This document shows, in pieces, positions 18,641-57,635 of a stretch of DNA of 64,000 nucleotides (position 1 is its first letter; every line of letters starts with the position of its first letter). The notes under the pieces are model-generated. The model did no database searches. It had not been told where the DNA came from and saw only the letters and a list, made by a program, of their open reading frames with translations. The stretch is from positions 21,786-85,785 of the forward strand of contig JAYPHU010000010.1 in the NCBI GenBank assembly GCA_038127535.1, given 5' to 3'. The position numbers were made by a program, and so were the translations under genes. Source of the DNA: Rhodospirillaceae bacterium. GTDB lineage: Bacteria; Pseudomonadota; Alphaproteobacteria; Rhodospirillales; UBA2165.

Positions 18641-19852
18641 CTACTCTTTTTCTACTGCTGTATTCCCCATGAGGCGCGAGCGCACACGTTGGACGGTATT
18701 GCGGATAGGGTTTTGAAGGTTTTCCGGTAGTTTGACGAGTGTCTTACGTGCATGATCTTTCGCCATGAAAAACGCTAAATTATTGTTACTGCGCCGATGC
18801 AAAATCAGGCTCTGTCGAAGAATTTTCAAAGACACTTCAGAATCAACCAGACCACGTTCCGTTACCTTAACGATGCTGCGGTCGATTTGTGCAAACATTT
18901 CGTCAAATTGGTCATGATCAAATTTTAGGTAATTTTTCTGGAAACCTAACGAATTGTCCGGATTTGCGACCAGATTGATATCCGGTTCGGCATCATACTT
19001 CAGTCCTAAGGCAACGAATCGTTCGATTTCTTCACAGTTGACTCGGTTCAGCGTCATGCTGATAGAAAATTCAAAATCCGTTTTGTTTTTTCTTTGCTTC
19101 AACCATTCGAGATTTTCGAGCACCTCGTTCCACGAAGCTTTTCGCCCACGAAGACGCAAGGCATCAAAACTTTCTTCGGTCGCGGCATCCAGCGAAACCG
19201 CCACGCCGAGCAACTCCTTGGTTGCCAGAATAGCCTTAACCCGCTCGGTAAACAAAGTCGCATTCGTAATAAAGTAATATTTACACCCGTCGGTCAGTTG
19301 ATCATTTTCCATAAAGTCCAGAACCGGGCGGTACAAGAACGGTTCTCCACCAAACGGGAGTACGACTTGAAAATGCGGAGACATTTCGGTGATCTGCTGC
19401 ATAAATGACGCTGGCAGCTTGAGCCGCATCAACGCGTCGTCGCGCTGATAACAGTGATAACAATCGAGATTGCAGGCATAGCTATAGGCAAAGCGCATCC
19501 AACGGGGTTTCGATTCTAGGGTTGTGAGCCGCTGATCGAACTCGATCTCGTTCTGGGCCGCATTCTGACGTGCTAGGCTTTGTGTGGGTAAGTCTTCGTA
19601 CCAACTCAGATTCCGATATCGTTTTCCGCCCTGTAGAATGGGGCAGGTGTGTGGGCACAACAAATGGGCGCCCTCATTAGCCATCTTTTTGCGTATACTC
19701 TGGAACCTTTCACCGTTCCAGATGTCTTCCACGGAACCCTCGTTGACATTTCCCAACACGGTCGCGTTGTCGCAACACATGGTTACGTTGCCATTGGGAT
19801 TATTTACTTCAAAGTGAGTCCAAGGATGGTCGCAAACGAATTTATTTTTCAT
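18641..19852 (-). CDS. Radical SAM enzyme with an N-terminal twitch/SPASM-like Cys domain
   Basis: C7-x13-G21-x4-C26C27 ... LGNV ... EDIWNG ... C66-x3-C70 precedes the core cluster motif C127-x3-C131-x2-C134 (YACNLDCYHC). Confidence 0.8.
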   Translation of the reverse strand: MKNKFVCDHPWTHFEVNNPNGNVTMCCDNATVLGNVNEGSVEDIWNGERFQSIRKKMANEGAHLLCPHTCPILQGGKRYRNLSWYEDLPTQSLARQNAAQNEIEFDQRLTTLESKPRWMRFAYSYACNLDCYHCYQRDDALMRLKLPASFMQQITEMSPHFQVVLPFGGEPFLYRPVLDFMENDQLTDGCKYYFITNATLFTERVKAILATKELLGVAVSLDAATEESFDALRLRGRKASWNEVLENLEWLKQRKNKTDFEFSISMTLNRVNCEEIERFVALGLKYDAEPDINLVANPDNSLGFQKNYLKFDHDQFDEMFAQIDRSIVKVTERGLVDSEVSLKILRQSLILHRRSNNNLAFFMAKDHARKTLVKLPENLQNPIRNTVQRVRSRLMGNTAVEKE

Positions 19853-19877: not shown

Positions 19878-20975
19878 TCATACTTCGATGCACTCCGATA
19901 TGGTTGCGACGACAGGCCGGAACTGCTCAACGGTCGTTACTGAAAATCGGCTATATCTTGAAAGGCAGGGCTCAAAAAACGATTGTCGATAATATACTAT
20001 CGAGTCCAAACGATTATGAATTTCGGGGGCATAATGGCCAAAACCGACCAACTGAAAATTACCCTCCGTTTTCGGCACCTCAAATCCCAATTGGCGCATT
20101 GATTCGGCGAAATAGTCTTTGCCGTTCAAGAGCCTTCGAATTGAGGCGTCCATTTCCTGCATGTTGTCCAGCAAGTGATCCAAAATTGCGGCGGCAAATC
20201 CGCCCAGCTCATACATAGGCTTAACTTTGTGAAGTATGTCGGTTAATTCGGGCGATGCGACACAGTAGCCAATACGAATTCCGGCTAGTCCCCATGACTT
20301 ACTGGCGCTACGAATAACAACCAAATGTGGATACTTCTCCGTTAGCCCTAGGACGGTTTTAGGATAGAAAGGCACATAGACTTCGTCGACGAGCATAATC
20401 GCCCCAACATTACCCGCAGCCTGAGTAAGCGCCTCAAGTTGCTCAGGTTCGAACACCGATCCTGTCGGACTATCTGGGTTGGGGAGACAGACAAGTTTTG
20501 GCCGGAGATCGTGAATCGCCGAAACAAACCGATCGAACCCTATTACAGGACCGTTCTCAGAATACTCATACGGAATCGTTTTTTGGTGGGCACCGAAAAT
20601 TTTGCAATAGACGTCATACATTGCAAAGGTCGGATGAGTCCGCAGCACAAAGTCTCCTGGATTAATAAACGCCTGAAATACGGAGCTTATGGCTGCGTCA
20701 GAGCCGTTTGTTAATAGCAACTTGTCCGCACTCACGCCCAAAAAAGAGGCTAGTTTTCTGTAGACCGGCGCAACATTCGGATAAGTGGCAACGGCCTGAT
20801 TTGGCAAGTCCGACACTACACCGACAATATGGGCAAGTAATTCTGGATCCAAATTCTCATTTTTGTCGAGCCAAAGCTTTTCAGTTTTCCTCCCGCCATC
20901 TTTCAGCCAGTCAGGGCGAACCAGAGAAATATCGGATACGGAATCTCGAGGTTTAGGGGTAGTATACTTCGTCAT
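19878..20975 (-). CDS. Class I/II PLP aminotransferase (HisC-like)
   Basis: PLP-lysine motif SASKSWGLAGIRIGY. LPNPDSPTG. Confidence 0.8.
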   Translation of the reverse strand: MTKYTTPKPRDSVSDISLVRPDWLKDGGRKTEKLWLDKNENLDPELLAHIVGVVSDLPNQAVATYPNVAPVYRKLASFLGVSADKLLLTNGSDAAISSVFQAFINPGDFVLRTHPTFAMYDVYCKIFGAHQKTIPYEYSENGPVIGFDRFVSAIHDLRPKLVCLPNPDSPTGSVFEPEQLEALTQAAGNVGAIMLVDEVYVPFYPKTVLGLTEKYPHLVVIRSASKSWGLAGIRIGYCVASPELTDILHKVKPMYELGGFAAAILDHLLDNMQEMDASIRRLLNGKDYFAESMRQLGFEVPKTEGNFQLVGFGHYAPEIHNRLDSIVYYRQSFFEPCLSRYSRFSVTTVEQFRPVVATISECIEV

Positions 20976-21041: not shown

Positions 21042-22832
21042 TCACTGAGCTATCTCGCCAGCAGTAGTAAATTGCCTAAAATCCGGACAAGTTTCGATAA
21101 GCGAATCAAAATCACCCACCGCTGTCACTCGCCCCTCCTTCATGAAGACCAGGCGGTCGCATTGGCGGACCGTATTTAATCGATGCGCTATAATCAAAAC
21201 CGTCATGTCACTGGACAACGAATTTATCGATTTCGTTATTTCCCGTTCTGTCTCGTTATCAAGAGCAGACGTTGCTTCATCGAGAACTAATAACTGTGGA
21301 TCAATGTAAAGGGCGCGCGCAATGGCTAATCGTTGGATTTGCCCGGCTGAAAGACCATGACCGCCCTCGCCTATCTGTTCGTCAATTCCGTTTGGCAGGG
21401 TTTCAACAACGTCTTCTAGACGGGAGAGATTGAGAGTTTCGTGGATACGATCATCGTCAATATCCGAGTCGTCAATTCCGAAAGCAATATTTTTCCGGAC
21501 TGTATCGTTCAACACACGAATGTTTTGAGGGACGTAACCAATTCGTTTCTGCCAATTCGACATGTTTTCGGACGGATCAACTCCATCGACCTTTATCGTT
21601 CCCGACGTTGGCGTAAGGAGACCCATAATGATATCGACGACCGTAGTTTTGCCCGACCCTGACCGGCCGACGAACCCGATCCGCTCTCCAGGGCGGATGA
21701 TAAGATCGAATTCATTTATCGCAGCAAGTGACGTATTGGGATAGACATAGGACACATTGGCCAAATGTATCTGACTGTCGAACCTAATAACGCGCGCGGT
21801 TGTTCGTTGGGGCTGGTCGACCACCACGTTGTATTGTTGCAAATCGGCGTACAGCTCGTTGATATAGGCTGTACGATCTCGAAGTGCCGCAATATTCGAG
21901 AGAATTCTGTTCAGCGTCGGCATCAACCGGAAACAGGCCATGCCGAAGAGACCGAGCACGGACACGGCTTCGCTAGGTGAACGGTTAGATGTTAATGCCA
22001 GCGCCGCTACTATCAACGCGACAACCAGAAACGATTCCAATCCTAACCGCGGCAAATGTATGGCCGTTGACGTGTTCGTGTAATACCACGCGCGCCAATG
22101 GGCGATCTGGCTAAACGAGCGAGAAAACGCCTCATGGCTATGCGATAACTTAATATGACGTATATTGGCCAACGTCTCCGTAATCAGGCCGATGAGGCTC
22201 CCTTCATAGCGCATACCGTCATGTCCCCAGCGAACAAAAGCCCGGGCGGTCGATTTCTGGAGGAAATAAGAGAAACCAAGCAGTACAGCAGCGGAAACGC
22301 TGATTGCAACCGGCTCAACGAGCATCAGAAGCACAACGATGCCTGCTAGCATCAGGATGTCCAAAACAATCAATATAACGAAGCGCAGGCCCTCAAAAGC
22401 CTGGCCGCAACCGGTCACCAAGTTTCTCAGCAACTCCGAATAGGGTCGCCGCAAATGAAATACCAGGGGCTGATGCAGGTAGGTCTTATAAAGTTGCGTC
22501 GAGAAATTCGCGCCTTTCAAATACATCACGATATTGACGAGATACACAATCCCCAACTGCAGCAAACTTTTGAAAATAAAAACAGCGATAAAGATTGCGG
22601 CAATAACTTTAAGGCCCGCATCCTTGAAAACATCGGGTAAATATTGAAAAACCGAAATCGTCGCCCCCACCTCGCCCTCACCCAAGAGCGCAAGGTGGAT
22701 AACGGGCAATATCAAAGCAATGCTGAACATCTCGAACAGGGCAAGCGCTAGCATCGGTATCAAAAGCAGACCCAGGTGAACACGATCCGGCAGGCTGACA
22801 AACATTGTTAGCTTTTTTAAAAGCTCAATCAT
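21042..22832 (-). CDS. ABC exporter, fused permease-ATPase half transporter (MsbA/PglK-like)
   Basis: Six N-terminal hydrophobic helices. Walker A GRSGSGKTT, signature LSAGQIQR, Walker B LLVLDEATSALD. Confidence 0.9.
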   Translation of the reverse strand: MIELLKKLTMFVSLPDRVHLGLLLIPMLALALFEMFSIALILPVIHLALLGEGEVGATISVFQYLPDVFKDAGLKVIAAIFIAVFIFKSLLQLGIVYLVNIVMYLKGANFSTQLYKTYLHQPLVFHLRRPYSELLRNLVTGCGQAFEGLRFVILIVLDILMLAGIVVLLMLVEPVAISVSAAVLLGFSYFLQKSTARAFVRWGHDGMRYEGSLIGLITETLANIRHIKLSHSHEAFSRSFSQIAHWRAWYYTNTSTAIHLPRLGLESFLVVALIVAALALTSNRSPSEAVSVLGLFGMACFRLMPTLNRILSNIAALRDRTAYINELYADLQQYNVVVDQPQRTTARVIRFDSQIHLANVSYVYPNTSLAAINEFDLIIRPGERIGFVGRSGSGKTTVVDIIMGLLTPTSGTIKVDGVDPSENMSNWQKRIGYVPQNIRVLNDTVRKNIAFGIDDSDIDDDRIHETLNLSRLEDVVETLPNGIDEQIGEGGHGLSAGQIQRLAIARALYIDPQLLVLDEATSALDNETEREITKSINSLSSDMTVLIIAHRLNTVRQCDRLVFMKEGRVTAVGDFDSLIETCPDFRQFTTAGEIAQ

Positions 22833-22905: not shown

Positions 22906-24102
22906 TCAATCGATTTCCCGAAAGTACGGTAAAGTAAGTGGGTCACCTGCCAAAACACGGAAGAAAAGTCCGTAATAATATCGAACGCGCCGGATATACG
23001 CGTAACCGGCGGCGATAACCGCATGAAATTTCCCCCTACTCAGACAATTGAATAAATAAACGGGGCTGACGAACCGTAATTCGTAGGTCGTAGGCAAGGG
23101 GATCGCAAAAAAGGAAAGAGCTCCGTGAATGAATAACGGCCTGTGTTTTCGATCAAAGCCGCAATGATCGAGTCTATTTTTTAATATGAAGTCGAGAACG
23201 AATTTTTCCGTCCCGAGAAGTTTCTGCTGCCAGTTATTGCTTCTAATCCGGCTCGTAAACTCCCGCTCATCCATACCAGGCTCTCCCTGCACGGGAGATA
23301 AATTATCGCCCCACCATCTTAGGCCGGCCCATGTTGATTTCATTACGCACGGATGAAATTCAACGCCAAGCCAGCAGCAAAGCGATCGCAAGACGGACTC
23401 GTTTGACAAATCCTCCATCCGCATAACTCGGAACCGGTCGGCAAGCGCAAACAGCGGTGCAGGATCGTCGATCAATCGTTTTAAGGCGAGGCGTGGAAGC
23501 GACGGTTCATCGATCAATTTTGCTTCTCGGAGAACCTGTTCCATTTTGGAAACGTATGCCGCACGTGGATCTCTCGTCGTGGCTATCATTTTGCTTTGCG
23601 GAAAATCTTCGAAATACGGGTCCAGCCGGCTGATGTCATGGATATGGTGAAAGAATACTTTCTTGATCATCGGATCTTGCCCAAGCGCCAACGCATAGGA
23701 AACGTAAACGGCCGATAAAACGTTTTTTCTCGTTACCGCCCGATTTTTAAAAAGGGCTGCCATATGGCCTTTAAACGCTGGAATATCGATACTAATCGAT
23801 TGATCCATGCTCTCGCCCAACCGATCCTTCCGTTCGACGACATCGTATTTCGACCGGAATTTGTCGATATGGCTGCCGATAAATTCTTGGGTGATATCTT
23901 CGATATCTAAATATTCGGAGCAGACGGTGCTTTTAGCGTTCTGCCAAAACTCGTGAAAAAATAAAATCCCATTGAAATTGAATATTTCCGGATGAGAGTC
24001 GAGCTGGCTTTGCAATGCGTCGCTCCCGGCCCGCCCCGTAGCCACCAGCCCGCACCAACCGCAACGATCAACATGAGCCCAGATTTGATCATAGTTTATC
24101 AC
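22906..24102 (-). CDS. Putative PAPS-dependent sulfotransferase
   Basis: 5'-PSB-like ATGRAGSDAL and 3'-PB-like TTRDPRAAYVS. GTGA overlap with the APS kinase stop at 24099-24102. Confidence 0.6.
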   Translation of the reverse strand: MINYDQIWAHVDRCGWCGLVATGRAGSDALQSQLDSHPEIFNFNGILFFHEFWQNAKSTVCSEYLDIEDITQEFIGSHIDKFRSKYDVVERKDRLGESMDQSISIDIPAFKGHMAALFKNRAVTRKNVLSAVYVSYALALGQDPMIKKVFFHHIHDISRLDPYFEDFPQSKMIATTRDPRAAYVSKMEQVLREAKLIDEPSLPRLALKRLIDDPAPLFALADRFRVMRMEDLSNESVLRSLCCWLGVEFHPCVMKSTWAGLRWWGDNLSPVQGEPGMDEREFTSRIRSNNWQQKLLGTEKFVLDFILKNRLDHCGFDRKHRPLFIHGALSFFAIPLPTTYELRFVSPVYLFNCLSRGKFHAVIAAGYAYIRRVRYYYGLFFRVLAGDPLTLPYFREID

Positions 24103-24647
24103 TCGCCACCGGCCTCCACGGTGAAATCTGGAAGCGCCACCCTTAACCGCGGCACGGCCATTGCCACCTCCCGAGCCATTTCCACCGGCGAACGCCGATT
24201 ATCCGCGTCCAAAACCATGTCTGGGTTGACCGGCTCATGCCACTCGATATCCATGCCCACGACATTGCCCATTTTCCCATCCCGAGCCTGCGCGTAGAGA
24301 GCCTTGGTATCCCGCGCTATCACGGTATCCAGAGAAGCGTGAAGATAGACTTCGAAGTAGTCGTCTAGATTGGTCCTGTTCCAGTCCAATAAATCGGCAT
24401 TGCCGTATAGGACGGCAACAATAACGACCAACCCCTGCTCCGCCAGAACCTTCGACATGGCCTGTAAGCGCCCAACCTGCAAAATCCGATCCGTTTCGGA
24501 ATAGCCGAGGTTATGCCCAAAGGCAGCCCGAACGATATCGCCGTCCAGAATGACGAGTTCAGGAAGCCGAGGCTTTAAGAGATCTCGCAACGCCGAACAC
24601 AGCGTCGTTTTACCGGCCCCGGAAAGGCCCGTGATCCATACAATCAT
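24099..24647 (-). CDS. cysC: Adenylylsulfate (APS) kinase
   Basis: MIVWITGLSGAGKTT P-loop, LDGDIVR, YSETDR. Confidence 0.9.
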   Translation of the reverse strand: MIVWITGLSGAGKTTLCSALRDLLKPRLPELVILDGDIVRAAFGHNLGYSETDRILQVGRLQAMSKVLAEQGLVVIVAVLYGNADLLDWNRTNLDDYFEVYLHASLDTVIARDTKALYAQARDGKMGNVVGMDIEWHEPVNPDMVLDADNRRSPVEMAREVAMAVPRLRVALPDFTVEAGGE

Positions 24648-24678: not shown

Positions 24679-25860
24679 TTAAACGAGTGTTTTACGGGTT
24701 ACCGCATCAGGCGACGACGAAGACGTCTGGGTTTCAAAGGATTCAAAGCTTTTGCGGGCAAGGTCACGAGCAGCCGGCCCATCGATACTCCGGATATTGT
24801 TGGCTGCACGCGCCCGGGTTATCAGCCCGTCACCCATTTCGGCAATATCTTCCGAACGCAGATACGGGGATATATACTTGCCAAGGTCCAATCCCCTCAA
24901 CCATCTATCTAATAGATCGGGAAATTCCTGTGTTTGGGCGCCAAAGGCATCCGCAGCGATCGCCACGCGGTCCGCATCTTCGTCCATATTAAAACGCGCG
25001 ACTTCCGGTAACGTGAAGCTGCAGGCGAACCCATGCGGCATATCGTATCGCGCCGTAAACGGATAGGACAATGAATGGGCAAGCGCTGTCTGGGTTGTGC
25101 CCATGGCCAAGCCACTCAAAACCGCAGCCGTTTGCATTTGCCGGCGCGATTCCACATTTTCGGCATCTTTCATGACTATCGGCAAGTGGACCTTAATAAT
25201 CTGGATGGCGTTAGCAGCAATCTGATCCGACAAATCCGTTTGATTGCGGTTCCAGATGGATTCAAGAGCATGTGATAATGCGTCCAGCCCGCTCGCCAAC
25301 GTAACGTCCGGGGGCATGGATAGGCATAGCGCTGCATCGAGAACTGCGGCCATAGGAAATAGTTTCGGATGCGTAAAAGAAAACTTAACCTGATCGTCGC
25401 CCCAAACGGTCGCCCACTGAGTAACTTCCGATCCGGTGCCGGAGGTTGTAGGGACGGCAATAACCGGTAACGGCTCAAAGTCGGGGGGCAGGTTCTCACC
25501 GTCTCTCAAATGACTCGTCATTACCTCGTCATTTTTCCCCAGACCACAATATCCCGCGATCGATTTTGCACAATCGATAACCGACCCGCCTCCCAGGGCA
25601 ACAATAATTTCGGCGTCACCGGTCAGCTTATCGGCCAAACCGACGACATCGGAAACCTTCGGGTTTTCGGGTATCGTTTCAATACACGCAACCGGTTCTC
25701 CGGCAAATCGGTATACCGATTCCAGCGCCCCGCGTGCGCGCCATCCTCTGCTGGTCGCAATCGCCCAGGACCGGCCTGAAATGAGCTGGCCAATCGCCTC
25801 CCCGTAGGCCTGCGTATAATATACGCGCGTCGGGCTGTAATAAGGACGGTTCAGAACCAT
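24679..25860 (-). CDS. Iron-containing (group III) alcohol dehydrogenase; by context a phosphonoacetaldehyde reductase candidate
   Basis: LGGGSVIDCAK and LSHALES His region of Fe-ADHs. Its ATG lies 10 nt inside the end of the HEPD/MPnS-like gene. Confidence 0.75.
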   Translation of the reverse strand: MVLNRPYYSPTRVYYTQAYGEAIGQLISGRSWAIATSRGWRARGALESVYRFAGEPVACIETIPENPKVSDVVGLADKLTGDAEIIVALGGGSVIDCAKSIAGYCGLGKNDEVMTSHLRDGENLPPDFEPLPVIAVPTTSGTGSEVTQWATVWGDDQVKFSFTHPKLFPMAAVLDAALCLSMPPDVTLASGLDALSHALESIWNRNQTDLSDQIAANAIQIIKVHLPIVMKDAENVESRRQMQTAAVLSGLAMGTTQTALAHSLSYPFTARYDMPHGFACSFTLPEVARFNMDEDADRVAIAADAFGAQTQEFPDLLDRWLRGLDLGKYISPYLRSEDIAEMGDGLITRARAANNIRSIDGPAARDLARKSFESFETQTSSSSPDAVTRKTLV

Positions 25861-27212
25861 TGGGACGTTTCTTCGATTGCGCGTTTTTTCCCGCTCGGCG
25901 CGAACGAGGCAAATTCGTCGAGGACGGAATCAGTGAAAGCTCCCGGTACGCGAATCATCGCCAGTTTGCCGTCTTCCGCACCCGTAACTCTCTCGAAGCG
26001 ATGGGTAACCAATGGGAGCACATAGGCCGAATCTCCTGGCTGCAAGGTCCGGCGCTGGTCGTCCGCCCAAACCAGATCAACCGGCGCATCGCCATAATTA
26101 TAGATATATTCGTGCAGCGCATGATACATATCACCCCCCGGTCCACCGAGAACGGCAACGTCAAAGCCTTTGAGCAATGGTTGATGCGAACAGCGGGCAA
26201 GCTCAACCAATTGATAGGCCGGTTGATTTCCATCAGGATATCCGCGCCCTGGGGTGGTGCTTAGTTTGCGCACCACAACGCGTCTCTCGGATGGAACGGA
26301 ATCGGCCATGAGATCGGCCGGTCGAACGTTCAGCAGCTGCGCCACAGACTGTACCTCGTCCCATGTCGGCACTTCACCATCGAGAAGGGCCTGGGCGCGA
26401 GGTGCCTCGCACCCGTTTTCGATCATGCGTGAAACGAAACTCGGGACGGTCATGCTCTCGGCGGCCAACTGACGCTTCATCCTAAGGGCGAACGGCGCAT
26501 CGACGTCTAAATTTCCGGCATGATCCATGAGTGACTGACCATCGACCGAGGCGAATTCACGATAGGCACGGCGAACCTCCCCGCCATAGGTGATGGCGAT
26601 GATCAAGCCCCTTGTCTCCGAATCCCGGCTGGTGAAACTATGAGGAACAAACGGCGTGATATAGTTCGAATCGCCGGTATTCATTTCTTCGCAATAACGG
26701 CGTCCATCGATTTCCCAGTAAAAATTCACGGGGCCGATGAAAAAGGTCGTTTGGTGCATAAAATGTCCCTTGTTATAGGCGACATCAGGGTTTTCGGGAT
26801 CGGCGTTGTCGACATAGCGTATTTCGGCGATCCACTCCGGCTTAAAGGGCGCAAGCTGGCTCATGGCCGTATCGCGGTATTCATAGTAGGGAGATGTCGA
26901 TCCGGTACGATCGACCCTGTCGAAAATACGCGAAGACCGGCGGGATTGTTCGGCGGTCATGACCAGAACACCGTTGTCGGTGTCGTCGCTGTCCAGCCAA
27001 ATATCGGCAAGCGAAATCGGATAAACTTCGGCCATAGTTTTCATAACGTTCTCGGCGGTCGTCAAATCCGTCTGTCCGGCAATCGTGGATTCGATAATTT
27101 CCAATGGGATGCCGATATCCTGCGCGAGCGCTGACGGAGTGCGTTTAAGATCGTTTGCCTCACTTAGTATACGTGCGCCCAGTTTTTGCAGAAACTGACC
27201 CTGTTTGGTCAT
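25851..27212 (-). CDS. HEPD/MPnS-family (HTH-cupin)x2 non-heme iron oxygenase; methylphosphonate synthase-like
   Basis: Two repeats of an XRE-like HTH plus a cupin. First cupin: GH150FMHQ154TTFFIGPVNF164 ... YI185TPFVPH191. ATGA overlap with the upstream nucleotidyltransferase at 27209-27212. Confidence 0.7.
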   Translation of the reverse strand: MTKQGQFLQKLGARILSEANDLKRTPSALAQDIGIPLEIIESTIAGQTDLTTAENVMKTMAEVYPISLADIWLDSDDTDNGVLVMTAEQSRRSSRIFDRVDRTGSTSPYYEYRDTAMSQLAPFKPEWIAEIRYVDNADPENPDVAYNKGHFMHQTTFFIGPVNFYWEIDGRRYCEEMNTGDSNYITPFVPHSFTSRDSETRGLIIAITYGGEVRRAYREFASVDGQSLMDHAGNLDVDAPFALRMKRQLAAESMTVPSFVSRMIENGCEAPRAQALLDGEVPTWDEVQSVAQLLNVRPADLMADSVPSERRVVVRKLSTTPGRGYPDGNQPAYQLVELARCSHQPLLKGFDVAVLGGPGGDMYHALHEYIYNYGDAPVDLVWADDQRRTLQPGDSAYVLPLVTHRFERVTGAEDGKLAMIRVPGAFTDSVLDEFASFAPSGKKRAIEETSQWF

Positions 27213-28015
27213 ATGGATTCCTCGTTCAGAGATTGAAGGGTGCTCAACCGTTGGCGGTCGGCAATAGTGTTCAATCGATTATAATCTTGGAGCGTGTCGA
27301 GTTCGGCCCACCCACGTTCGACCAACGCCGCGTCGATGCGGTGCCCCCTGTCGACAAGCTCCTGGAACATATCCGTTATGTAGGCGATACGCCAAGCACG
27401 AGCCCGTTGAAACGGTTCTTCGGGGTCAAGCCGTTTGTCTAGTTCGTCAAACGTCTCCCGCATGAGCGTAGTTCCGTCCGCGCTCATACGCCATAAACCA
27501 AGGAATTCACCTTGTTCTTCTATCTTTTCCTGCGGCTCCTTCAGCCCTTTTCCAAATCTATGCAATCTGCCGTCGGCGTCGAAGTGGGCGTTCTCGGCTT
27601 CTTCGGGGGGATGTTCCGAACGGCCGATATAATAATCTTTCCAATCCGTATCGACCGCCGCGACGATGTCGCCGCCGGTGTTTACAAGCGCTGTGTAGAT
27701 GCCGGGTTCGACCCAAATATCCGAATAGGTACAAATCAACGGCCCGTCGAGTGCATCCCGGGCACACATCAATGAATGCAGGATATTATTGTTTTCGTAG
27801 TTGTTATTCCGGACGAAGCGGACGCTATCTGTTTGGACGGCCTCGCTCATATGGCCGACGATAACGATAATTTCATCGCAACCGGCGGCACGAAGATTAT
27901 CTTTCGCGCTTTCAATCAGGGGGCGCCCGCCGACCGGTAACATGCATTTAGGGCGCACTATTGTCAGTGGACGCATACGCATCCCCATCCCCGCCGCGAT
28001 AATTACCCCTTTCAT
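27209..28015 (-). CDS. LicC/PntC-like nucleotidyltransferase (cytidylyltransferase candidate for a phosphonate or phospho-alcohol)
   Basis: MKGVIIAAGMGMRMRPLT (GxGxR) with a small-molecule NTP-transferase fold length (268 aa). ATGA overlap at 28012-28015. Confidence 0.75.
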   Translation of the reverse strand: MKGVIIAAGMGMRMRPLTIVRPKCMLPVGGRPLIESAKDNLRAAGCDEIIVIVGHMSEAVQTDSVRFVRNNNYENNNILHSLMCARDALDGPLICTYSDIWVEPGIYTALVNTGGDIVAAVDTDWKDYYIGRSEHPPEEAENAHFDADGRLHRFGKGLKEPQEKIEEQGEFLGLWRMSADGTTLMRETFDELDKRLDPEEPFQRARAWRIAYITDMFQELVDRGHRIDAALVERGWAELDTLQDYNRLNTIADRQRLSTLQSLNEESI

Positions 28016-28911
28016 TGTTTCGGTCTTCTTTCAAAAAAATTGTTGGTATCGATTGTTTCGGTGTCAGGCTCCCCGCCGGACGTCGAAACCCGGAGCTTCA
28101 AGTCAAAACCGGCATCAACCATCTCTTGCGTGATGAATTCGAAGTTTTGCCGGTTTGCCGTCGTATTAGTCGGCGGCAATTCAATCATCACTGTCTTCAA
28201 ACGTGTGTCCCGAAGCGTCGTCTGGGCTCCTCTGATTACCCTCTCCTGAATACCGTCGATATCCACTTTCATGTGGGTTGGAAATGGCACATCAAACGTT
28301 TCCAGGAAAGAATCGATCGAAAACCCGATGGCCGGAAATTGCTTCACCGCATCGACGGGACTCCCGTGATTGTCGAGCGTTTGACCGAACACCCCACCGG
28401 CACCGCCGGCCATATCACCCTCCACCGGAACGGAAAGGGGAGAAACCTCTGTCTTGTCTGACAACGCTAAACAGAATGGCCAAACGCGGTCGGCTAGACC
28501 ATTCAAGTGGATCGTCTCGACTATATTGGCATGATTCTGAGGCAACGGATCGAATGCCAGAACGCTCGCGTCCGACTTGACGGCCGCATAAAGGCTAAAA
28601 ATTCCGATATTAGATCCGATGTCCCAGAAGTTGTCGGCCTTCGCGAAACCGGCGATCCACCGCAGTGTATCGGGCTCCCTCTCGAGCATCCTCTCAACGC
28701 GGATTCGAACCAAATCGCTGTCGATACGAAATTTGATTTCATCGCCACCTATGTCGACGGAATAACTGCGATCGAAACGGTCGAGAGAGACAGCTAGTAA
28801 CTTGAAGTAAAAAGCCGGAGAAACTGACCGGGCCAAGGTTTCAAACGAATTTATTAAAAGATTGAATGACCGGTGGGCAATCGAGGAGTTCAAATCGTTA
28901 GGTCGTGGCAT
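28012..28911 (-). CDS. FkbM-family methyltransferase
   Basis: FWDIGSNIGIFSLYAA motif. Trimmed to the ATG at 28911 (MPRPNDL...), preceded by GAGAAGG. The track start at 29010 would overlap the SDR gene. Confidence 0.75.
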   Translation of the reverse strand: MPRPNDLNSSIAHRSFNLLINSFETLARSVSPAFYFKLLAVSLDRFDRSYSVDIGGDEIKFRIDSDLVRIRVERMLEREPDTLRWIAGFAKADNFWDIGSNIGIFSLYAAVKSDASVLAFDPLPQNHANIVETIHLNGLADRVWPFCLALSDKTEVSPLSVPVEGDMAGGAGGVFGQTLDNHGSPVDAVKQFPAIGFSIDSFLETFDVPFPTHMKVDIDGIQERVIRGAQTTLRDTRLKTVMIELPPTNTTANRQNFEFITQEMVDAGFDLKLRVSTSGGEPDTETIDTNNFFERRPKQ

Positions 28912-28921
28912 GGGGCCTTCT

Positions 28922-29635
28922 CTATTCTCCACCCGCGATCGTAACCGTTTGGCCGGTGACATAGGTATTGTCTTCCGAACCGTACCAATAGACAAAATTC
29001 GCAATTTCACCGGGCAGTGCCATTCGCCCCATCGGTATCATCGAAACGCGTGCCGACATATCTTTCCCTGAATCTCGATCATGGATTCGTGTTTCGGTAA
29101 CGCCAACCCTAACGGTATTGATCAGGACGTTGCTGGCTGCCCATTTCCTATAGTCGGACGGCAAAAATTCTAGTGCATGCTTGGTCAGGGAGTATCCAAA
29201 TGTCGATGATCCTCCGCCAAATTTCGCCCCGATACTGCTGAGGTTAATTATCCTGCCCCACCCGCGCTCAACCATCGGCGGCACGGCCATCCGAGTTATG
29301 AGAACCGCCGGCACAACGTTGACTGCAAATAAGTGCATTAGATCCTGTGGCTGAATATCGGCGAACGGCTTCGCCTGCAACTCAGCGGCCGCATTGATTA
29401 CGCAGTCGCTTTCCTCAATCGCGGATCTAATGTCACTGAGTTTCGATTCCAGCGCGGCATGATTCGAAAAATCAATTTGGACCGGCGTTACTCTGTCCGA
29501 CGATTCCGTCAAACGCCAAAACGAATTTTGCCCTCTATTGTAATGGGCGAGAACCTGCCAACCCTTTTCGAGATAAAGCCGGCAAAGTTCGATCCCGATA
29601 TCCGAACTGGCCCCGGTTATAAAAACTTGGCGCAT
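28922..29635 (-). CDS. Short-chain dehydrogenase/reductase (SDR)
   Basis: ITGASSDIGIELC (TGxxxxIG) and YSLTKHALE (YxxxK). Confidence 0.85.
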   Translation of the reverse strand: MRQVFITGASSDIGIELCRLYLEKGWQVLAHYNRGQNSFWRLTESSDRVTPVQIDFSNHAALESKLSDIRSAIEESDCVINAAAELQAKPFADIQPQDLMHLFAVNVVPAVLITRMAVPPMVERGWGRIINLSSIGAKFGGGSSTFGYSLTKHALEFLPSDYRKWAASNVLINTVRVGVTETRIHDRDSGKDMSARVSMIPMGRMALPGEIANFVYWYGSEDNTYVTGQTVTIAGGE

Positions 29636-29637: not shown

Positions 29638-30597
29638 TTAACCTTTTGACGAAATCGTACCCTTCGGCACGATCCTTTCAAATTTCTCCCAGGCCTCGAC
29701 ATGGTCCGAACCCATTAGGGTTCCTTTTACGTCACACAATCTGCATGGCCCGAAATCTCGGTCTGCGGCGGCTAACCGTTTCCGCGCGATTCTCATTCGG
29801 CGTCCGGCCCAGATCTCCAGGAAATTCGATTCGTTCATGTTCCCTACCACGAGCATTTTTCCCCAATCATGAGGGCACATTAAAACGTCGCCCGTATAAT
29901 CCATAAAAAAGGTGTAGTGAGGGTAATTACACGCGGCCTTGATTGGCTCGGGTGGTGTATCAATCGAGTACTCCGCCGAATCCATCATTCCTGCCCGGTT
30001 ACTTAATGTAATGCCAAAGTCCTGTTCCGGTGGCAAATACCGTTTTCGAATGACGAACTGATGGGAATCCAGCCCTTCATCGCGACACAAATTTTCGAAA
30101 CGTTCCACATCCTCGGGGCCGTCATAGACGCTTATCAGAAGCGTCGAAAGACCGTTTTCAAATAACAGTTTTAGGCGTTTAGCGTCGAGAACGTCCCCAT
30201 TGGTGACAAGCTCCAGACGAACTTCGGGAAGGTTTGAACGGACAATTTTAAGTAGGTTAAAAATATTCTTATCAAGTAGTGGCTCTACAAAACCGGAAAA
30301 TAGAAATATGCCTTTGTAATTTAGTTCCGCGAGTTGCCGAACTAGCTTTTCGATAAGCTCGTCGGAAATGAACTCCTTCACGTCGGGGAAGGCTGGGGCG
30401 CTTCGCGGGCAAAACGAGCAGGTTCGATTACATGTTCCGGACTCGCTGATTTCAACCACCGAAGGCAACGGCACCTTATCGCCATGAAATGTAAGGTTTT
30501 CGTCAACGATCGACGACTTCCTTTTTATGGAAGGATCGAGGAAAGTTTTGCCCCTGTTGGTTCTCACGTTCATGGCGTCTAATTCGTTAGTTTTCAA
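29638..30597 (-). CDS. Radical SAM enzyme with canonical C-terminal twitch/SPASM-like domain
   Basis: SGTCNRTCSFCPR (CxxxCxxC). C-terminal C-x12-G-x4-C (CNYPHYTFFMDYTGDVLMC) ... LEIW ... CRLC. The track start is TTG (TTGA overlap). An ATG at 30573 is the alternative. Confidence 0.8.
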   Translation of the reverse strand: MKTNELDAMNVRTNRGKTFLDPSIKRKSSIVDENLTFHGDKVPLPSVVEISESGTCNRTCSFCPRSAPAFPDVKEFISDELIEKLVRQLAELNYKGIFLFSGFVEPLLDKNIFNLLKIVRSNLPEVRLELVTNGDVLDAKRLKLLFENGLSTLLISVYDGPEDVERFENLCRDEGLDSHQFVIRKRYLPPEQDFGITLSNRAGMMDSAEYSIDTPPEPIKAACNYPHYTFFMDYTGDVLMCPHDWGKMLVVGNMNESNFLEIWAGRRMRIARKRLAAADRDFGPCRLCDVKGTLMGSDHVEAWEKFERIVPKGTISSKG

Positions 30598-32342
30598 TGA
30601 AGCCGATCAAGGATCTCACATTTCATATCCCGTGCAATATCGCCGTCAACAACTTCGCCCATAGACTTACCCGACAGATCGATAAGCCCTGCCAATTGTT
30701 GAGTGGGGTAATACCATGTACCGGCCTCAGCCTCGCGAATGCGTTTGGCCGCCGTGGCGGAGTCTTTGACACATATGTCAGGAATCTCACGAAACATCGC
30801 TGTCGGCTGAAACGATGCTGTATCAAGCGCGAATGCCTGCATACCGAGCTGGGCCGCCTCGAACAATACGGACGAAGGGTCCGAAAACGCATATTTGCCT
30901 TTAAACATCAGGTCGTAGACGGGTTCGGTCGTGTATCTCACGTTTGGACGGCCGGCACTGCATTTTTCGACTAGCCGATCGCCGATTTCGCTTTCGTTCA
31001 TAACGCGCTTCACCTGCAGATAAACGGTTCTCTCGGGAAACGCCGCCGACAGGCCCCGCACAATATCGACAACGTCATCATGGTCCGAAAAGACGCCAAT
31101 AAAAAACACGATGTCGTTAGGCTTCGGCCTAAGCCGGTTTTGAAGTTGTGCATCTGTTAAACTATGGCTGGCGGCACCGATAACCCCCATATCCGCAGGC
31201 CAATGATCCCGGTAATGCCTCTCATAATGACTTGGGCCATATACGTAAAAGCGGTCAAAACTAACATAGCGCAAATGCGGAAATAGGTCGCAGTAGACGG
31301 GTATGCCGTCGGACATTCCGAACGACTTCGCACCTATTTTTTTTAGTTCTTGGTGCCGAAGAATATGATCGACATTGTAAGGGTCGCGCCCCCAAAAATA
31401 CCGCGGCCGGAACCTCAATACCAACCCTCTGATCTGAACACGCTTTTGCGCCAAATTCACTATCCAGAAAAAAAGACTCGGAGGAAAGTAACGGCCGGCC
31501 CTAGCCAAATCCCATGTATGCCGAATAAATTCGTCGAGATAACTCAGGGTGTCCGCAAGGCTAAACCTGCCGTCACGCCGCTCACAAACCGCCACCGGAT
31601 CCAGGCCATCAAGCTTGCTGCGGTCAACCGGCCCCATTCGCCCGACCAAAACGATATCGCCCCACCGGCGCAGGGCTTTTAGCATCGATATGTCTCTGGA
31701 ATCTTCCATATGGTCGGTCGCCATAAAGACGTCATTCAATCTTTCAACTTTCAAGCGCGTCCGCGATAAAATAAATAACACTCCCCGTACAACAACCATC
31801 ACGGCAATCAAGGCATTCACCATCATCCTTGGCAGGGATTGACGCATCTTGTCGGACGCAGACCCCGGTGAGGCGTATTCCCGGCTCATCGCCAGAAGAT
31901 CTTCGGGAACACCCACATTCTTCGCGGAATTCAACTCCTTGTCGGCAAACAGCTTCGAAAGGAGCAACGCCTCGACTTGGCGGTCCCAACTCAGTTGGCA
32001 GACCGCCTTTCGGGCCGCCATGGCATAATCCGGTATTTGGCGGTCTAGCCGCTCAAACTCGTAATACCGTTCGAGCCAGGGTTCGACGATGCGAAAAATG
32101 TCATAAAGTAAGACACTGGGCGGATAGAGCATCACCATCTTAAGTTCCGGATAACGTTTGCCCAGATCCCTTGCCCAACCTCGGCTCTTAGCCCATTGCG
32201 CCAAGGATTCGAGCAACCGTTGGCTTGGCCCAAAAGCCCCGTGGACCGATAAAATCAAGGGCGACCGCCTGAAAGCGACTTCCAACAGAAATCTCGGACA
32301 ACTTGATTCCGTTAGCCGGATGACAACTGGATTACGCGACAT
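30594..32342 (-). CDS. Orphan GT-B-like surface-carbohydrate biosynthesis protein (paralog 2 of 3)
   Basis: 582 aa with no motif I can assign. The C-terminal half is patterned like the 9567 and 35986 proteins (FGMSDG..., GPSHYERHY, FFIGVFSD..., SSVLFEAAQLGMQAF). Confidence 0.6.
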   Translation of the reverse strand: MSRNPVVIRLTESSCPRFLLEVAFRRSPLILSVHGAFGPSQRLLESLAQWAKSRGWARDLGKRYPELKMVMLYPPSVLLYDIFRIVEPWLERYYEFERLDRQIPDYAMAARKAVCQLSWDRQVEALLLSKLFADKELNSAKNVGVPEDLLAMSREYASPGSASDKMRQSLPRMMVNALIAVMVVVRGVLFILSRTRLKVERLNDVFMATDHMEDSRDISMLKALRRWGDIVLVGRMGPVDRSKLDGLDPVAVCERRDGRFSLADTLSYLDEFIRHTWDLARAGRYFPPSLFFWIVNLAQKRVQIRGLVLRFRPRYFWGRDPYNVDHILRHQELKKIGAKSFGMSDGIPVYCDLFPHLRYVSFDRFYVYGPSHYERHYRDHWPADMGVIGAASHSLTDAQLQNRLRPKPNDIVFFIGVFSDHDDVVDIVRGLSAAFPERTVYLQVKRVMNESEIGDRLVEKCSAGRPNVRYTTEPVYDLMFKGKYAFSDPSSVLFEAAQLGMQAFALDTASFQPTAMFREIPDICVKDSATAAKRIREAEAGTWYYPTQQLAGLIDLSGKSMGEVVDGDIARDMKCEILDRLH

Positions 32343-34269: not shown

Positions 34270-35210
34270 TATGGTGAATCTTTTAGGACGGCTACCAATT
34301 GATCGATGGTGCTACGATGGACGTTATTCCAGGCACGCGGACTGGAATTGCTGTTATGGGGCGCTAGCATCACGTTATCCATCGACCTAAGCGGACTGTC
34401 GGCGGGCAATGGTTCGTCTTCAAACACATCGAGCCCAACGCCACCAATTTCGCCAGACTTAAGCGCAGCCACCAATGCCGACTCATCCACAACCGGGCCG
34501 CGCGCAGTATTGATCATCACGGCGGTCGATTTCATACGGCGAAATTGGTCGTGACTTAATAGATGATGCGAGGTTTCGTTAAGATCGCAGTTAACACTGA
34601 TGAAGTCGGATTCCGCAAGCAAATGATCCAAACTGGTCATTTGAACGCCCAGTTCCGTTTGCTGATGCCGATCGATCTCCCGAATATCGGTTCCCCGCAA
34701 TTCAAAACCAAAGCCTCTTGCGCGCCTCAAAACCGCCGAACCAACGTCTCCGACACCAATAACACCCAAAACCGATTCATTCAGCGCTCGGCCCGGCAAT
34801 TTGTCCCAAACGCCGTTTTTCATCATGCGGTCCATCCAGGGCAAGCGCCGAGCGAAGCATAGGATATACCCCATAACCGAGTCGGCGACTGGCTGAGAAA
34901 AGGCGTTCGGTGTCCGGCAAACTCGAATACCGCGGCGTTCAGCCTCTTCTGACGCGATCGAATCAATTCCGGTACCCCATTTGGCAATAACTTTTAGCTT
35001 GGGCGCCGCATCGAGAACGCGCTCGGTTATTCGGTCGTCACCACATATGATGCCGTCCATGTCGCCGACAACGGCAAGCAAATCGTGTTCTTCGAGACGC
35101 TCTTCGACGTCGGCTGTGGTTACTTTGATATCGTGAGCCGCAAATTCTTCGGCGAATTGACCGACAACGGGCAGTAGATAGGGCGCGCTAATTAAAACAT
35201 TCCAGGTCAA
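34269..35210 (-). CDS. D-isomer-specific 2-hydroxyacid dehydrogenase (PGDH-like)
   Basis: VLGVIGVGDVGSAV (GxGxxG), NTARGPVVDE, APHNSNSS. TTG start in a TTGA overlap with the upstream stop. Confidence 0.85.
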   Translation of the reverse strand: MTWNVLISAPYLLPVVGQFAEEFAAHDIKVTTADVEERLEEHDLLAVVGDMDGIICGDDRITERVLDAAPKLKVIAKWGTGIDSIASEEAERRGIRVCRTPNAFSQPVADSVMGYILCFARRLPWMDRMMKNGVWDKLPGRALNESVLGVIGVGDVGSAVLRRARGFGFELRGTDIREIDRHQQTELGVQMTSLDHLLAESDFISVNCDLNETSHHLLSHDQFRRMKSTAVMINTARGPVVDESALVAALKSGEIGGVGLDVFEDEPLPADSPLRSMDNVMLAPHNSNSSPRAWNNVHRSTIDQLVAVLKDSP

Positions 35211-35980
35211 GAGTTCTTTTCTCCGGCTTCAAGATATTCCGCACACAATGGATCTGACCTCATCAGAGTTTCAACGCGGGTCAGGTCGGACGGAGTGTCG
35301 ACGGCGAAGGTAGAAAACGACGTTTCAACCATATGGACCCGCACACCGTTTTCAATGAATCTCAGCATGTCTATGGATTCGGATATTTCCAGCGGGGTCG
35401 GTGCCAGGGAGGCAAAGTTTTCGAGGGCGTTTCGCCGGAACGGCATGATGCAGACCTGTTTGTAAGCGGGAATCTCCTTAAAGGCCGCCTTGCCCGGATG
35501 AGGTATGGCCGAGCGCGACATGTACAAGGCGCGCCCGTCTAATCCGGTGACGACCTTAATCGTATTAGGATCGCGCCATTCTTCCTCCGATTCGATCTTC
35601 TTCATTAGGTTGACACAGGGTATCGAAGAGTCGCCGGTCATCGCCGCAACAGCCGCGTCTATCATATCGGGGTGAACCATTGGTTCATCACCCTGCACCA
35701 TGACGGCGATTTCGGCGTCTAAACTCTCCATCGCTTCGGCGATGCGGTCGCTAGCCCGTTCGTGTCGATCCGAGGTCATACTGTACTGTCCGCCAAACCG
35801 CTCAACAGCTTGGCAGATTTCGGTATCACAGGTGGCAACATAAACGCCGGACAACGACTTGCACATGGCGGTTCGATGATAAACGTGCTCGATCATGCTG
35901 AGCCCTAGGATCGGTGCCAGCGGCTTGCCCGGAAACCGCGAAGATCCCATGCGCGCAGGTAGGATGGCGACTGTGGACAT
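35207..35980 (-). CDS. KdsB/KpsU-like 3-deoxy-2-ulosonate cytidylyltransferase (paralog B, 257 aa)
   Basis: VAILPARMGSSRFPGKPL and MVQGDEPM. Trimmed to the ATG at 35980 (MSTVAIL...). Same length as paralog A at 13102..13875. Confidence 0.8.
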   Translation of the reverse strand: MSTVAILPARMGSSRFPGKPLAPILGLSMIEHVYHRTAMCKSLSGVYVATCDTEICQAVERFGGQYSMTSDRHERASDRIAEAMESLDAEIAVMVQGDEPMVHPDMIDAAVAAMTGDSSIPCVNLMKKIESEEEWRDPNTIKVVTGLDGRALYMSRSAIPHPGKAAFKEIPAYKQVCIMPFRRNALENFASLAPTPLEISESIDMLRFIENGVRVHMVETSFSTFAVDTPSDLTRVETLMRSDPLCAEYLEAGEKNS

Positions 35981-35985
35981 AATAT

Positions 35986-39504: not shown

Positions 39505-40548
39505 CTATCCGTGGCTACTCAGAAAGTCTTCCAGCGGCTGAAAATTGATGTGTTCACCAAAAAGAATGCCTCCACCGGTACAATTGTAAGTAAGGCTTTC
39601 CGACTCCGCTGCCATCTCTAAAAAACACTCCCGATACCACATATAGGCGGGATCGGTATAAAACCATGTATCGATATGAGGATTGTGAACCCACATGAAA
39701 ATTGAATCCAATTCCGCTTCACCGACCAGATCGACGGCCTCATGATAGTATTGGGTCGCCGTATAAGGCGTATCAGAGTAGTACGAGAAATCCATCCCCG
39801 TTAGAGCAACGTGCTTTATTCCGAGCACTTCACACGCGATCATCCAACTTGCGGCACCAACATTGCCGCCCGCGTTTATGCATGGAAGCTTATTGAGACG
39901 ATATAGCTCTCGCGTAACGCTGGTCTGCTCATCCGGGTCATCAAGCATCGGGTTCCACCAAAATATTTGCATTCCAGCCCGCACCACCCGCCGAATTACT
40001 TGGTCAGACGTGCAGCTGGCGAGAGCTATCCGCATATCCCCAGCGTTTCGATCGATCAATTCAATCATTTCGCGGTTTGTTTCCAATTCACGAGCGAATC
40101 CCGTATCCATATCTTGCCGACGGTAATAGTCGTCCTGTTCGATCATGTCCTGAGTTAATTCCGGATCACCAAACCATCGGATAATACGCCCGGGAAGCGG
40201 ATCAACCGAAACGACCAAATCAGGCATAACGTCGTTTTGGAGACAATAACGCATCGCACTTTCCGTCGCGATTATCGCCCCGCCATAGTCAACCTTCTTA
40301 ATCGCCTTTATTGGATCCTGGTGACGGATACTTGGACCGGCAGCAATAATAACGGCGCTGTCTTTCGGCTTAAATTTTTGTCCCTTCAGCGCCGCGATCG
40401 ATCTACCGTTTTCCAGATAGCGTACGTTAGCGCGCGCATTTGTTAGGGAACGGTCGCGAATCCGGTCAGCCGTCATGTTCTCCATGTTTTCGACCAACCG
40501 ACGGCCAACGTCGCCGTGTTTAACCGGCGGCGTAACTGAGCTATTCAT
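39505..40548 (-). CDS. DUF115 / Maf (motility-associated-factor)-type putative nonulosonic-acid transferase
   Basis: SAVIIAAGPSIRH ... GAIIATESAMRYCLQNDVMPDLVVSVDP, the pattern I associate with the DUF115/MAF_flag10 core. Confidence 0.65.
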   Translation of the reverse strand: MNSSVTPPVKHGDVGRRLVENMENMTADRIRDRSLTNARANVRYLENGRSIAALKGQKFKPKDSAVIIAAGPSIRHQDPIKAIKKVDYGGAIIATESAMRYCLQNDVMPDLVVSVDPLPGRIIRWFGDPELTQDMIEQDDYYRRQDMDTGFARELETNREMIELIDRNAGDMRIALASCTSDQVIRRVVRAGMQIFWWNPMLDDPDEQTSVTRELYRLNKLPCINAGGNVGAASWMIACEVLGIKHVALTGMDFSYYSDTPYTATQYYHEAVDLVGEAELDSIFMWVHNPHIDTWFYTDPAYMWYRECFLEMAAESESLTYNCTGGGILFGEHINFQPLEDFLSSHG

Positions 40549-44207: not shown

Positions 44208-44208
44208 T

Positions 44209-57633: not shown

Positions 57634-57635
57634 TA

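Follow-up and report, generated by a model that had tools for sequence, protein, structure and literature searches.

Methylphosphonate (MPn) has been proposed as the origin of the methane in oxygenated sea water; its marker gene is that for methylphosphonate synthase (MPnS). In the clusters of Nitrosopumilus maritimus SCM1 and Pelagibacter HTCC7211, the genes ppm, ppd, pdh and mpnS, which stand for phosphoenolpyruvate (PEP) mutase, phosphonopyruvate decarboxylase, phosphonoacetaldehyde reductase and MPnS, reportedly lie together with a nucleotidyltransferase (NTase) gene and 'sulfatase-like' genes. In fosfomycin biosynthesis, the cytidylyltransferase (CyTase) Fom1 makes CMP-HEP, the cytidylyl form of 2-hydroxyethylphosphonate (2-HEP). 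Here we describe a block of four minus-strand genes, MPnS among them, in a stretch of 64,000 nt from a Rhodospirillaceae bacterium (GenBank assembly GCA_038127535.1, contig JAYPHU010000010.1, positions 21,786 to 85,785; the whole stretch is called the window below). Our results favor a model, to which we give a probability of roughly 60%, in which the block is functional, producing and activating MPn, and a separate ppm-ppd cassette provides its phosphonoacetaldehyde in trans.

The window shares with the N. maritimus and Pelagibacter clusters the iron ligands and the F/I residue pair of MPnS, a PhpC-type iron-dependent alcohol dehydrogenase (Fe-ADH), a LicC-like NTase, and a polysaccharide context implying MPn esters on a glycan. 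It differs from them in that ppm and ppd are unlinked, with neither present in ~81 kb, in that the sulfatase-like and TagF-like candidate transferases are missing, and in its setting within a putative nonulosonic-acid glycan operon beside a sulfation gene pair. Nucleotidyl activation is common in phosphonate tailoring, and the PntC-type cytidylyltransferases of 2-aminoethylphosphonate (2-AEP, or AEP) phosphonoglycan tailoring (Rice 2019, PMC6697681), like Fom1, resemble the window in setting a PF12804-type NTase among phosphonate genes, with a CMP-phosphonate as the presumed donor. The window NTase, however, is stand-alone rather than fused to Ppm, and its partner is MPnS rather than an AEP transaminase or Fom3. 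Earlier work placed MPnS in Rhodospirillales and Flavobacteriales, amid glycan genes (PMC9381506).

The block consists of the following genes:

28012–28911, minus strand: FkbM-family methyltransferase, accessory (PF05050, 40.5 bits; TIGR01444, 61.7 bits)
27209–28015, minus strand: PntC/LicC-like nucleotidyl (probably cytidylyl) transferase, 268 amino acids (PF12804)
25851–27212, minus strand: MPnS, 453 amino acids (homology to 6b9s and signature residues)
24679–25860, minus strand: phosphonoacetaldehyde reductase, an Fe-ADH of the PhpC/Pdh type, 393 amino acids (Pfam Fe-ADH and ADH_Fe_C)

By its sequence, the oxygenase is an MPnS, predicted to convert 2-HEP to MPn. It aligned over its full length with the structure of N. 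maritimus MPnS (6b9s; residues 5–453, E=1.4e-84) and more weakly with that of Streptomyces albus HEPD, a 2-HEP dioxygenase (6b9r; E=6.2e-67), and its match to HppE was marginal. Published criteria define mpnS by H148, Q152, F162, I/V184 and H190, and hepD by A/Q152, I/Y162 and E/G184 (Lockwood 2022, PMC9381506 Table S2). At the corresponding positions, the window protein has H150, Q154, F164, I185 and H191, which is the full MPnS signature; S. albus HEPD, aligned alongside, has Y and G at the two positions that tell the enzymes apart. The iron ligands H150, Q154 and H191 are invariant across 32 homologues, and the signature was present in all of those compared with a full-length alignment (39/39). 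There are more than 784 homologues, some of them already named 'methylphosphonate synthase' by the Joint Genome Institute (JGI). What the initial annotation had called MPnS-like is of the true MPnS type, given both the preference for 6b9s over 6b9r and the H-Q-F-I-H signature.

The two partner enzymes are also of the kinds first proposed for them. The best NCBIfam match of the Fe-ADH is the phosphonate-associated family TIGR03405 (Phn_Fe-ADH), at 295.1 bits, and the next family reaches 161 bits, a margin of 134 bits. The metal ligands of the Fe-ADH (D193, H262 and H276) reach at least 95% conservation across 36 syntenic homologues and have the spacing of PhpC D199/H268/H282, and its gene directly follows MPnS in most related loci, which supports assignment to the PhpC type. 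The NTase, which begins MKGVIIAAGMGMRMRPLT, carries the N-terminal G-x-G-x-R motif and matches PF12804 with 58.3 bits; its best structural relatives are LicC (1jyk, 1.9e-12) and PntC-AEPT (6pd1, 5.9e-8), and it is 26–32% identical to the NTase domain of Ppm-NTase fusions. When species representatives of the Genome Taxonomy Database (GTDB) were scanned with an MPnS alignment, 46 related loci were recovered, the source genome not being among them, and in 30 of the 46 a protein 38–59% identical to the window NTase is encoded immediately upstream of MPnS. The enzyme thus belongs to the LicC/PntC group and is a conserved upstream partner of MPnS.

In the pathway that we propose, the Fe-ADH would reduce phosphonoacetaldehyde to 2-HEP, MPnS would cleave 2-HEP to MPn, the PntC-like NTase would join the phosphonate (MPn, or possibly 2-HEP) to CMP, and the CMP-phosphonate would then be moved onto a surface glycan. 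The genes that form the C-P bond, ppm and ppd, would lie elsewhere in the genome, for example in a stand-alone ppm-ppd cassette, with or without an AEP transaminase gene, whose phosphonoacetaldehyde would serve as a branch point for AEP and, via the module, for MPn.

The lack of these early genes in the window, remarked upon in the initial annotation, was upheld by Pfam, motif and tblastn searches alike. Neither PF13714 (PEP_mutase) nor TPP_enzyme domains occur among the 53 open reading frames (ORFs) of at least 150 amino acids in the window, the motifs EDKxxxxxNS and GDG...NN are absent from all six frames, and seven Ppm and four Ppd queries from related loci located no ppm or ppd in the window by tblastn, the sole match being that of Ppm-NTase fusion queries to the window NTase domain. 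Proteins identical to those of the window are also encoded in the NCBI metagenome-assembled genome (MAG) GCA_038124865.1 (JAYPCT01) and in the Logan assemblies of SRR26337523-28, whose contigs add ~7 kb upstream (L004) and ~10 kb downstream (L006). The upstream flank holds the rest of a 1297-amino-acid protein, a radical SAM enzyme, a methyltransferase and IS1595 fragments; the downstream flank holds a methyltransferase, epimerases, a WecA-like GT4 glycosyltransferase, a DHQ synthase-like protein, a GT1 glycosyltransferase and a Polysacc_synt_2 gene. Neither ppm nor ppd was found in either flank (~17 kb), so that, with the window, ~81 kb are covered without them, while pdh directly adjoins mpnS. 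It had been suggested that the early genes lie past nt 64000 in the same operon, but this is unlikely, since the first genes of the operon, which follow a NusG paralog gene, lie near 57 kb and neither ppm nor ppd occurs in the further ~7 kb upstream.

Comparison with relatives indicates that this separation is not peculiar to the window. The conserved core of the related loci is a triplet of NTase, MPnS and Fe-ADH genes in that order, usually overlapping. Among the 23 loci with at least 8 kb of sequence on both sides, Ppm and Ppd are encoded within 10 kb in 14 and not in 9. A distance tree was made of these 23 loci and three more fetched by exact look-up (L142, L145 and L146). Within the window's MPnS clade, 10 of the 14 other fully flanked members have neither Ppm nor Ppd within 10 kb. 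The same is true of just one of the nine fully flanked loci of the outer clades; the other eight have the core triplet beside both. The enrichment of Ppm-less loci in the window's clade has a Fisher p of ~0.01, for a grouping that was chosen post hoc and is uncorrected for phylogeny. Ppm-adjacent members are interleaved within the clade, and the nearest tree neighbours of the window are L009, which is Ppm-less, and L142, which has a complete ppm-ppd-mpnS cluster. Because Ppm-less relatives recur, the missing early genes represent a recurrent layout rather than an oddity of the window, and because all 19 Ppm-less loci keep the catalytic signature, the genes appear to be maintained as working.

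Three relatives illustrate the range of layouts. L142 (ENA ERZ28763718 ctg125407, a 4.07-Mb contig), whose MPnS is 56% identical to that of the window, encodes in a row an NTase, a Ppm-NTase fusion, Ppd, MPnS, Fe-ADH, a sulfatase-family protein and an APS (adenosine 5'-phosphosulfate) kinase. It shares with the window the order of NTase, MPnS, Fe-ADH and APS kinase, with FkbM-like, MBOAT and GDSL genes nearby, but in L142 the fusion and Ppd genes intervene between those for NTase and MPnS, and the place of the window's sulfotransferase is taken by a sulfatase-family gene. L145 lies in the complete 3.9-Mb genome of Thalassospiraceae bacterium LMO-JJ14 (CP134604.1, with MPnS at 527–528 kb) and is Ppm-less. 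Like the window, and in the same order, it combines a short-chain dehydrogenase/reductase (SDR), FkbM, a protein of ~530 amino acids of unknown type, GFO/IDH/MocA, NTase, MPnS and Fe-ADH genes with an ABC exporter close by and no ppm or ppd within 10 kb; unlike the window, it has a sulfatase-family gene and lacks an APS kinase/sulfotransferase pair beside the module, and its MPnS is ~50% identical. L146, on a 1.29-Mb contig, is likewise Ppm-less and has APS kinase, sulfotransferase, FkbM and B12-radical SAM genes nearby. A separate arrangement was seen in L015 and L040 (Rhodospirillaceae and Proteobacteria MAGs), where an MPnS-Fe-ADH pair with the full catalytic signature and no NTase sits among the housekeeping genes for DNA polymerase III delta', MetRS, TatD, an MBL-fold protein and MazG, far from any glycan or phosphonate genes.

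A source of phosphonoacetaldehyde in trans is plausible for bacteria of this kind. A query with a Ppm-NTase fusion drew very many such proteins from Rhodospirillales-type MAGs, and two matches that were looked up, both in alphaproteobacterial MAGs, proved to be stand-alone cassettes of Ppm-NTase, Ppd and a class-V aminotransferase among housekeeping genes. These cassettes suggest where ppm and ppd might be located in the source organism.

Several observations weigh against the model of a module fed by a distant cassette. No ppm or ppd was seen for the source organism in the ~81 kb of window and flanks. The Fe-ADH, at 295.1 bits, falls below the TIGR03405 equivalog cut-off of 423.7. That the NTase would take CTP together with a phosphonate (MPn, HEP or AEP), and not with a sugar-1-phosphate or phosphocholine, is a prediction drawn from synteny. 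Lastly, hidden Markov models (HMMs) of the three families of transferases found alongside MPnS in relatives, the TagF-like F7, the sulfatase-family F9 and the membrane alkaline phosphatase (AP)-type F13, matched nothing in the window, leaving the transfer step without a candidate family.

The first of these observations has a rival explanation, in which the cell has no PEP mutase and imports 2-AEP or 2-HEP, a PhnW-type transaminase producing phosphonoacetaldehyde from 2-AEP and the module converting it to MPn. Such scavenging would account for the absence of ppm and ppd from ~81 kb and for the Ppm-less state, with residues intact, of 10 of the 14 loci in the clade, one of them in a complete genome. 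It also has a precedent, since 53% of phpC genomes are without pepM and reuse of 2-AEP via phnW and phpC has been proposed (Lockwood 2022, PMC9381506). However, neither a PhnW-like class-V aminotransferase nor a phosphonate transporter is encoded in the window or beside the Ppm-less modules examined, whose neighbours are housekeeping or glycan genes. Furthermore, the window MPnS branches beside that of L142 with its complete cluster, and absence within 10 kb is uninformative on the rest of a genome. We therefore regard scavenging as unlikely, though deserving of serious attention. Its broader version, in which the mostly alphaproteobacterial clade including the source organism makes MPn without a PEP mutase of its own, from scavenged 2-AEP or 2-HEP by way of phosphonoacetaldehyde, and places it onto a surface glycan, seems to us distinctly doubtful.

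The sequence bore out the chain of four minus-strand genes joined by two ATGA overlaps and a 10-nt overlap that the initial annotation had described: the ATGA junctions lie at 28015–28012 and 27212–27209, and the overlap between MPnS and Fe-ADH is ATGGTTCTGA (25860–25851). The view of the block as a distinct, translationally coupled unit did not hold, as coupled junctions occur throughout the operon. The large ORFs of the window are all on the minus strand, and of their 52 junctions, 11 are exact 4-nt overlaps, 27 are overlaps of any length and only five are intergenic gaps of more than 100 nt. In the region from 22 to 30 kb, promoter-like and terminator-like sites showed no excess over the shuffled expectation, and an Rfam scan of the window found zero families. 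Since its junctions are not distinctive, the block is best described as an internal stretch of a very long operon. Nor is the FkbM gene a conserved member of the module: it is not kept beside the module in relatives, and FkbM-type genes recur near the module in L016, L142, L145 and L146. Its ORF is open back to 29010 (full ORF, 28012–29010), and the ATG at 28911 is the likely start because GAGAAGG stands just upstream and the codon lies 10 nt past the SDR stop. The neighbouring genes are as follows:

29638–30597, minus strand: radical SAM/SPASM protein, upstream of the block beyond the SDR (Pfam)
28922–29635, minus strand: SDR, directly upstream of the block (Pfam)
24099–24647, minus strand: APS kinase of a glycan-locus subfamily (PF01583, 116 bits; P-loop and DGD motif)
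22906–24102, minus strand: PAPS-type sulfotransferase, 398 amino acids (motifs, homologues, AF2/Foldseek)
21042–22832, minus strand: PglK/MsbA-like ABC exporter (ABC_tran and ABC_membrane; PglK is the best NCBIfam match, 305 bits, below its cut-off)

In L016, a 59%-identical radical SAM/SPASM protein and an SDR are encoded a few genes from the MPnS module; a tie of the two window genes to the phosphonate is putative. Homologues of the ABC exporter adjoin the module in L016, L026, L145 and L146, and the PglK-like exporter suggests a context of glycan export.

Downstream of the Fe-ADH gene, after a gap of 31 nt, come the APS kinase gene and, overlapping it by 4 nt, the sulfotransferase gene, and the two are best read as an ordinary pair for glycan sulfation through 3'-phosphoadenosine 5'-phosphosulfate (PAPS). 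The kinase scores 144 bits against NF004041 (cut-off, 127) and 126.9 bits against the equivalog TIGR00455, below the cut-off of 138.7. The sulfotransferase scores 24.8 bits against PF13469 (cut-off, 27), and its homologues pass and carry PF13469 or PF00685, one of them being fused to an APS kinase. Its residues G23-R24-G26, H155 and R177-D178-P179...S185 are invariant and constitute the 5'-PSB and 3'-PB motifs plus a histidine. An AlphaFold2 (AF2) model (pLDDT 91.8) had as top Foldseek matches only PAPS-dependent sulfotransferases (4gbm, 5wrj, 3ap3 and TPST1/2).

A more unusual role for this pair is suggested by the O-methyl phosphoramidate (MeOPN) system of Campylobacter jejuni, in which Cj1415-Cj1418 make CDP-phosphoramidate 3'-phosphate (PMC11800397) and, as in the window, a nucleotidyltransferase, an APS-kinase-family gene and one or more methyltransferases stand in a surface glycan locus; for Campylobacter, 'adenylsulfate kinase' genes linked to phosphonate have been mentioned briefly (PMC8942020). 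By this analogy, the kinase would phosphorylate the 3'-OH of CMP-MPn, as Cj1415 does that of CDP-phosphoramidate, the sulfotransferase-fold protein would transfer the methylphosphonyl group and FkbM would methylate it. The idea is attractive because the kinase trails the Fe-ADH in many MPnS loci (it directly follows in at least 10) and has neither of the canonical substrate motifs, ISP and F-T-G; in L016, another APS kinase, of canonical appearance, is encoded beside a fusion of a pyruvate kinase homologue with ATP sulfurylase (PK-Sat), and the window offers no other transferase candidate. However, a metagenome scan of the kinase subfamily argues for sulfation. Kinases with the same motifs, 41–61% identical to that of the window, adjoin ATP sulfurylase (Sat) in 45 of the 80 loci recovered, without phosphonate genes, and in 29 of the 50 with at least 1.2 kb of downstream sequence; phosphonate genes occur in only 6 of the 80. 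Since Sat-adjacent kinases have the same variant motifs, the window kinase is an APS kinase of a glycan-locus subfamily, although the window itself contains no Sat gene. The sulfotransferase, with its PAPS motifs, belongs to an ordinary family (PF13469/PF00685) with a member fused to an APS kinase. We consequently rejected the MeOPN-like donor system as very improbable: the window kinase is of a subfamily linked elsewhere to ATP sulfurylase, its next gene is a standard sulfotransferase, and the resemblance to C. jejuni, with Cj1415 compared by description, is probably superficial.

In the kinase scan, genes for an APS kinase, ATP sulfurylase and a pyruvate-kinase homologue also recurred as a triad in nonulosonic-acid or glycan loci (28 of the 50 with enough downstream sequence; L062 8001-11048, L065, L066, L076 and others). 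PK-Sat fusions are encoded in L009 (17195–19390) and L016 (2504–4468). The two APS kinases of L016 (4330–5022 and 12637–13155) differ in type, the canonical ISP-type enzyme standing beside the PK-Sat fusion and the variant-type enzyme following the Fe-ADH of the MPnS module, and the keeping of both is not accounted for by the sulfation reading.

It is also highly unlikely that the Fe-ADH and oxygenase act on a non-phosphonate substrate, for example by converting sulfoacetaldehyde via isethionate to a C1 sulfonate. A weak match of the Fe-ADH to the sulfoacetaldehyde reductase SarD (118 bits) and the adjoining APS kinase and sulfotransferase genes would be in line with such a role, but the Fe-ADH favors the phosphonate family by 134 bits, Ppm-less and Ppm-adjacent MPnS are interleaved in the tree with all signature residues in common, and the kinase subfamily is tied to ATP sulfurylase rather than to sulfonate metabolism. 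Orthology to the enzymes of complete clusters, together with the retention of all signature residues, thus makes a change of substrate unlikely. That the block is a functionless relic of a ppm-ppd deletion, as the position of the Ppm-NTase fusion and Ppd between NTase and MPnS in L142 might imply, seems very improbable, given four intact and tightly coupled ORFs with every catalytic residue present and a Ppm-less layout kept across many diverged lineages at 48–59% identity.

For the last step of the proposed pathway, the TagF-like, sulfatase-family and membrane AP-superfamily proteins of relatives may be phosphonyl transferases. In the sulfatase-family protein, a conserved Thr occurs in the aligned N-terminal region, at the formylglycine-forming Cys/Ser site of sulfatases. 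The window encodes four proteins of 462–646 amino acids with no Pfam or NCBIfam match (30594–32342, 35986–37926, 42885–44273 and 9567–11327), and one of these may carry out the transfer. Of these four, the one of 586 amino acids is matched by a 41%-identical homologue close to the L016 MPnS module, and L145 has an unknown of similar size in the equivalent position; the one of 582 amino acids has no match in the Protein Data Bank (PDB) or Pfam, and its single-sequence AF2 model (pLDDT 35.6) was unusable.

The operon of ~56 kb in which the module lies has its head near 57 kb, after genes for a NusG paralog (57130–57633) and a winged-helix protein, and its content suggests that it builds a surface glycan containing nonulosonic acid. 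It encodes a NeuB/NnaB-type synthase, a NeuC-like epimerase, a CBS-nucleotidyltransferase, HisH/HisF-like proteins, DegT aminotransferases, several GT2 glycosyltransferases, MBOAT and SGNH-type acyltransferases, a Maf/PseD-like protein and the PglK-like exporter, as well as three B12-radical SAM and two SPASM/twitch radical SAM enzymes. Three CMP-ulosonate synthetases (two KdsB-like and one PseF-like) and the Maf/PseD-like gene occupy 13102–13875, 35207–36028, 40772–41452 and 39505–40548; they may serve to activate more than one keto-sugar acid, with flagellin a possible target besides polysaccharide. The NusG paralog (167 amino acids) is probably a dedicated anti-termination factor. It and the winged-helix protein span 57130–58385 and stand at the operon's head, following a gap of 281 nt; the exact ops-like motif GGCGGTAG was not found, and only variants with one mismatch occur, not clearly above chance.

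Further upstream, a separate unit (59570–63864, continuing beyond position 64000; L004 6108-11551) includes the 1297-amino-acid protein, of which the C-terminal 914 amino acids alone are encoded in the window. This protein combines a ribulose-phosphate-3-epimerase domain with a weak class-II aldolase-like region and is followed by a 516-amino-acid protein made of NTP_transf_3 and ~370 unmatched amino acids. The IS1595-family transposase fragments, near the contig end (L004 1-372, ~7 kb past position 64000), may mark the edge of a glycan island. At 19878–20975, a HisC/CobD-like PLP enzyme matches hisC with 197 bits and threonine-phosphate decarboxylase with 145 bits, both below cut-off, and recalls the enzymes Cj1437 and Cj1436, for serinol-phosphate and ethanolamine-phosphate, encoded in the capsule locus of C. 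jejuni.

An analogy with Fom3 had been offered for the radical SAM enzymes, by which a B12-radical SAM protein would act on a CMP-phosphonate. We found nothing in its favor: the three B12-radical SAM genes are separated from the block by 9–23 kb and show no synteny with the module in relatives, and the nearest of them has no PDB relative. The 686-amino-acid B12-radical SAM enzyme (51420–53480) has a full-length, 33%-identical homologue in the archaeal MPnS cluster L032 (17001–19130), and since this orthologue, the only clear one in relatives, adjoins and follows NeuB there, it points to nonulosonic-acid tailoring. The four further radical SAM genes (1173–2918, 37975–39474, 18641–19852 and 29638–30597) encode two B12-binding proteins, one with an N-terminal twitch/SPASM domain and the radical SAM/SPASM protein at 29638–30597.

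In summary, the window holds a known kind of MPnS module in a layout that is little noticed, even though related bacteria often show the same split, and the uncoupling from ppm at the level of the clade is the only wider point. For the window itself the outcome is mainly one of annotation, with a glycan that probably bears both methylphosphonyl and sulfate groups. Most modules of the window's clade are unlinked to the genes that form the C-P bond and yet, to judge from their residues, are catalytically intact. Neighbourhood rules that need ppm beside mpnS would therefore miss or misjudge producers, and whether such modules are served by a distant ppm-ppd cassette or by scavenged 2-AEP becomes a concrete, testable question. 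If MPn synthesis without Ppm proved to be true, surveys that use pepM as a marker would miss a route to an oceanic methane precursor.

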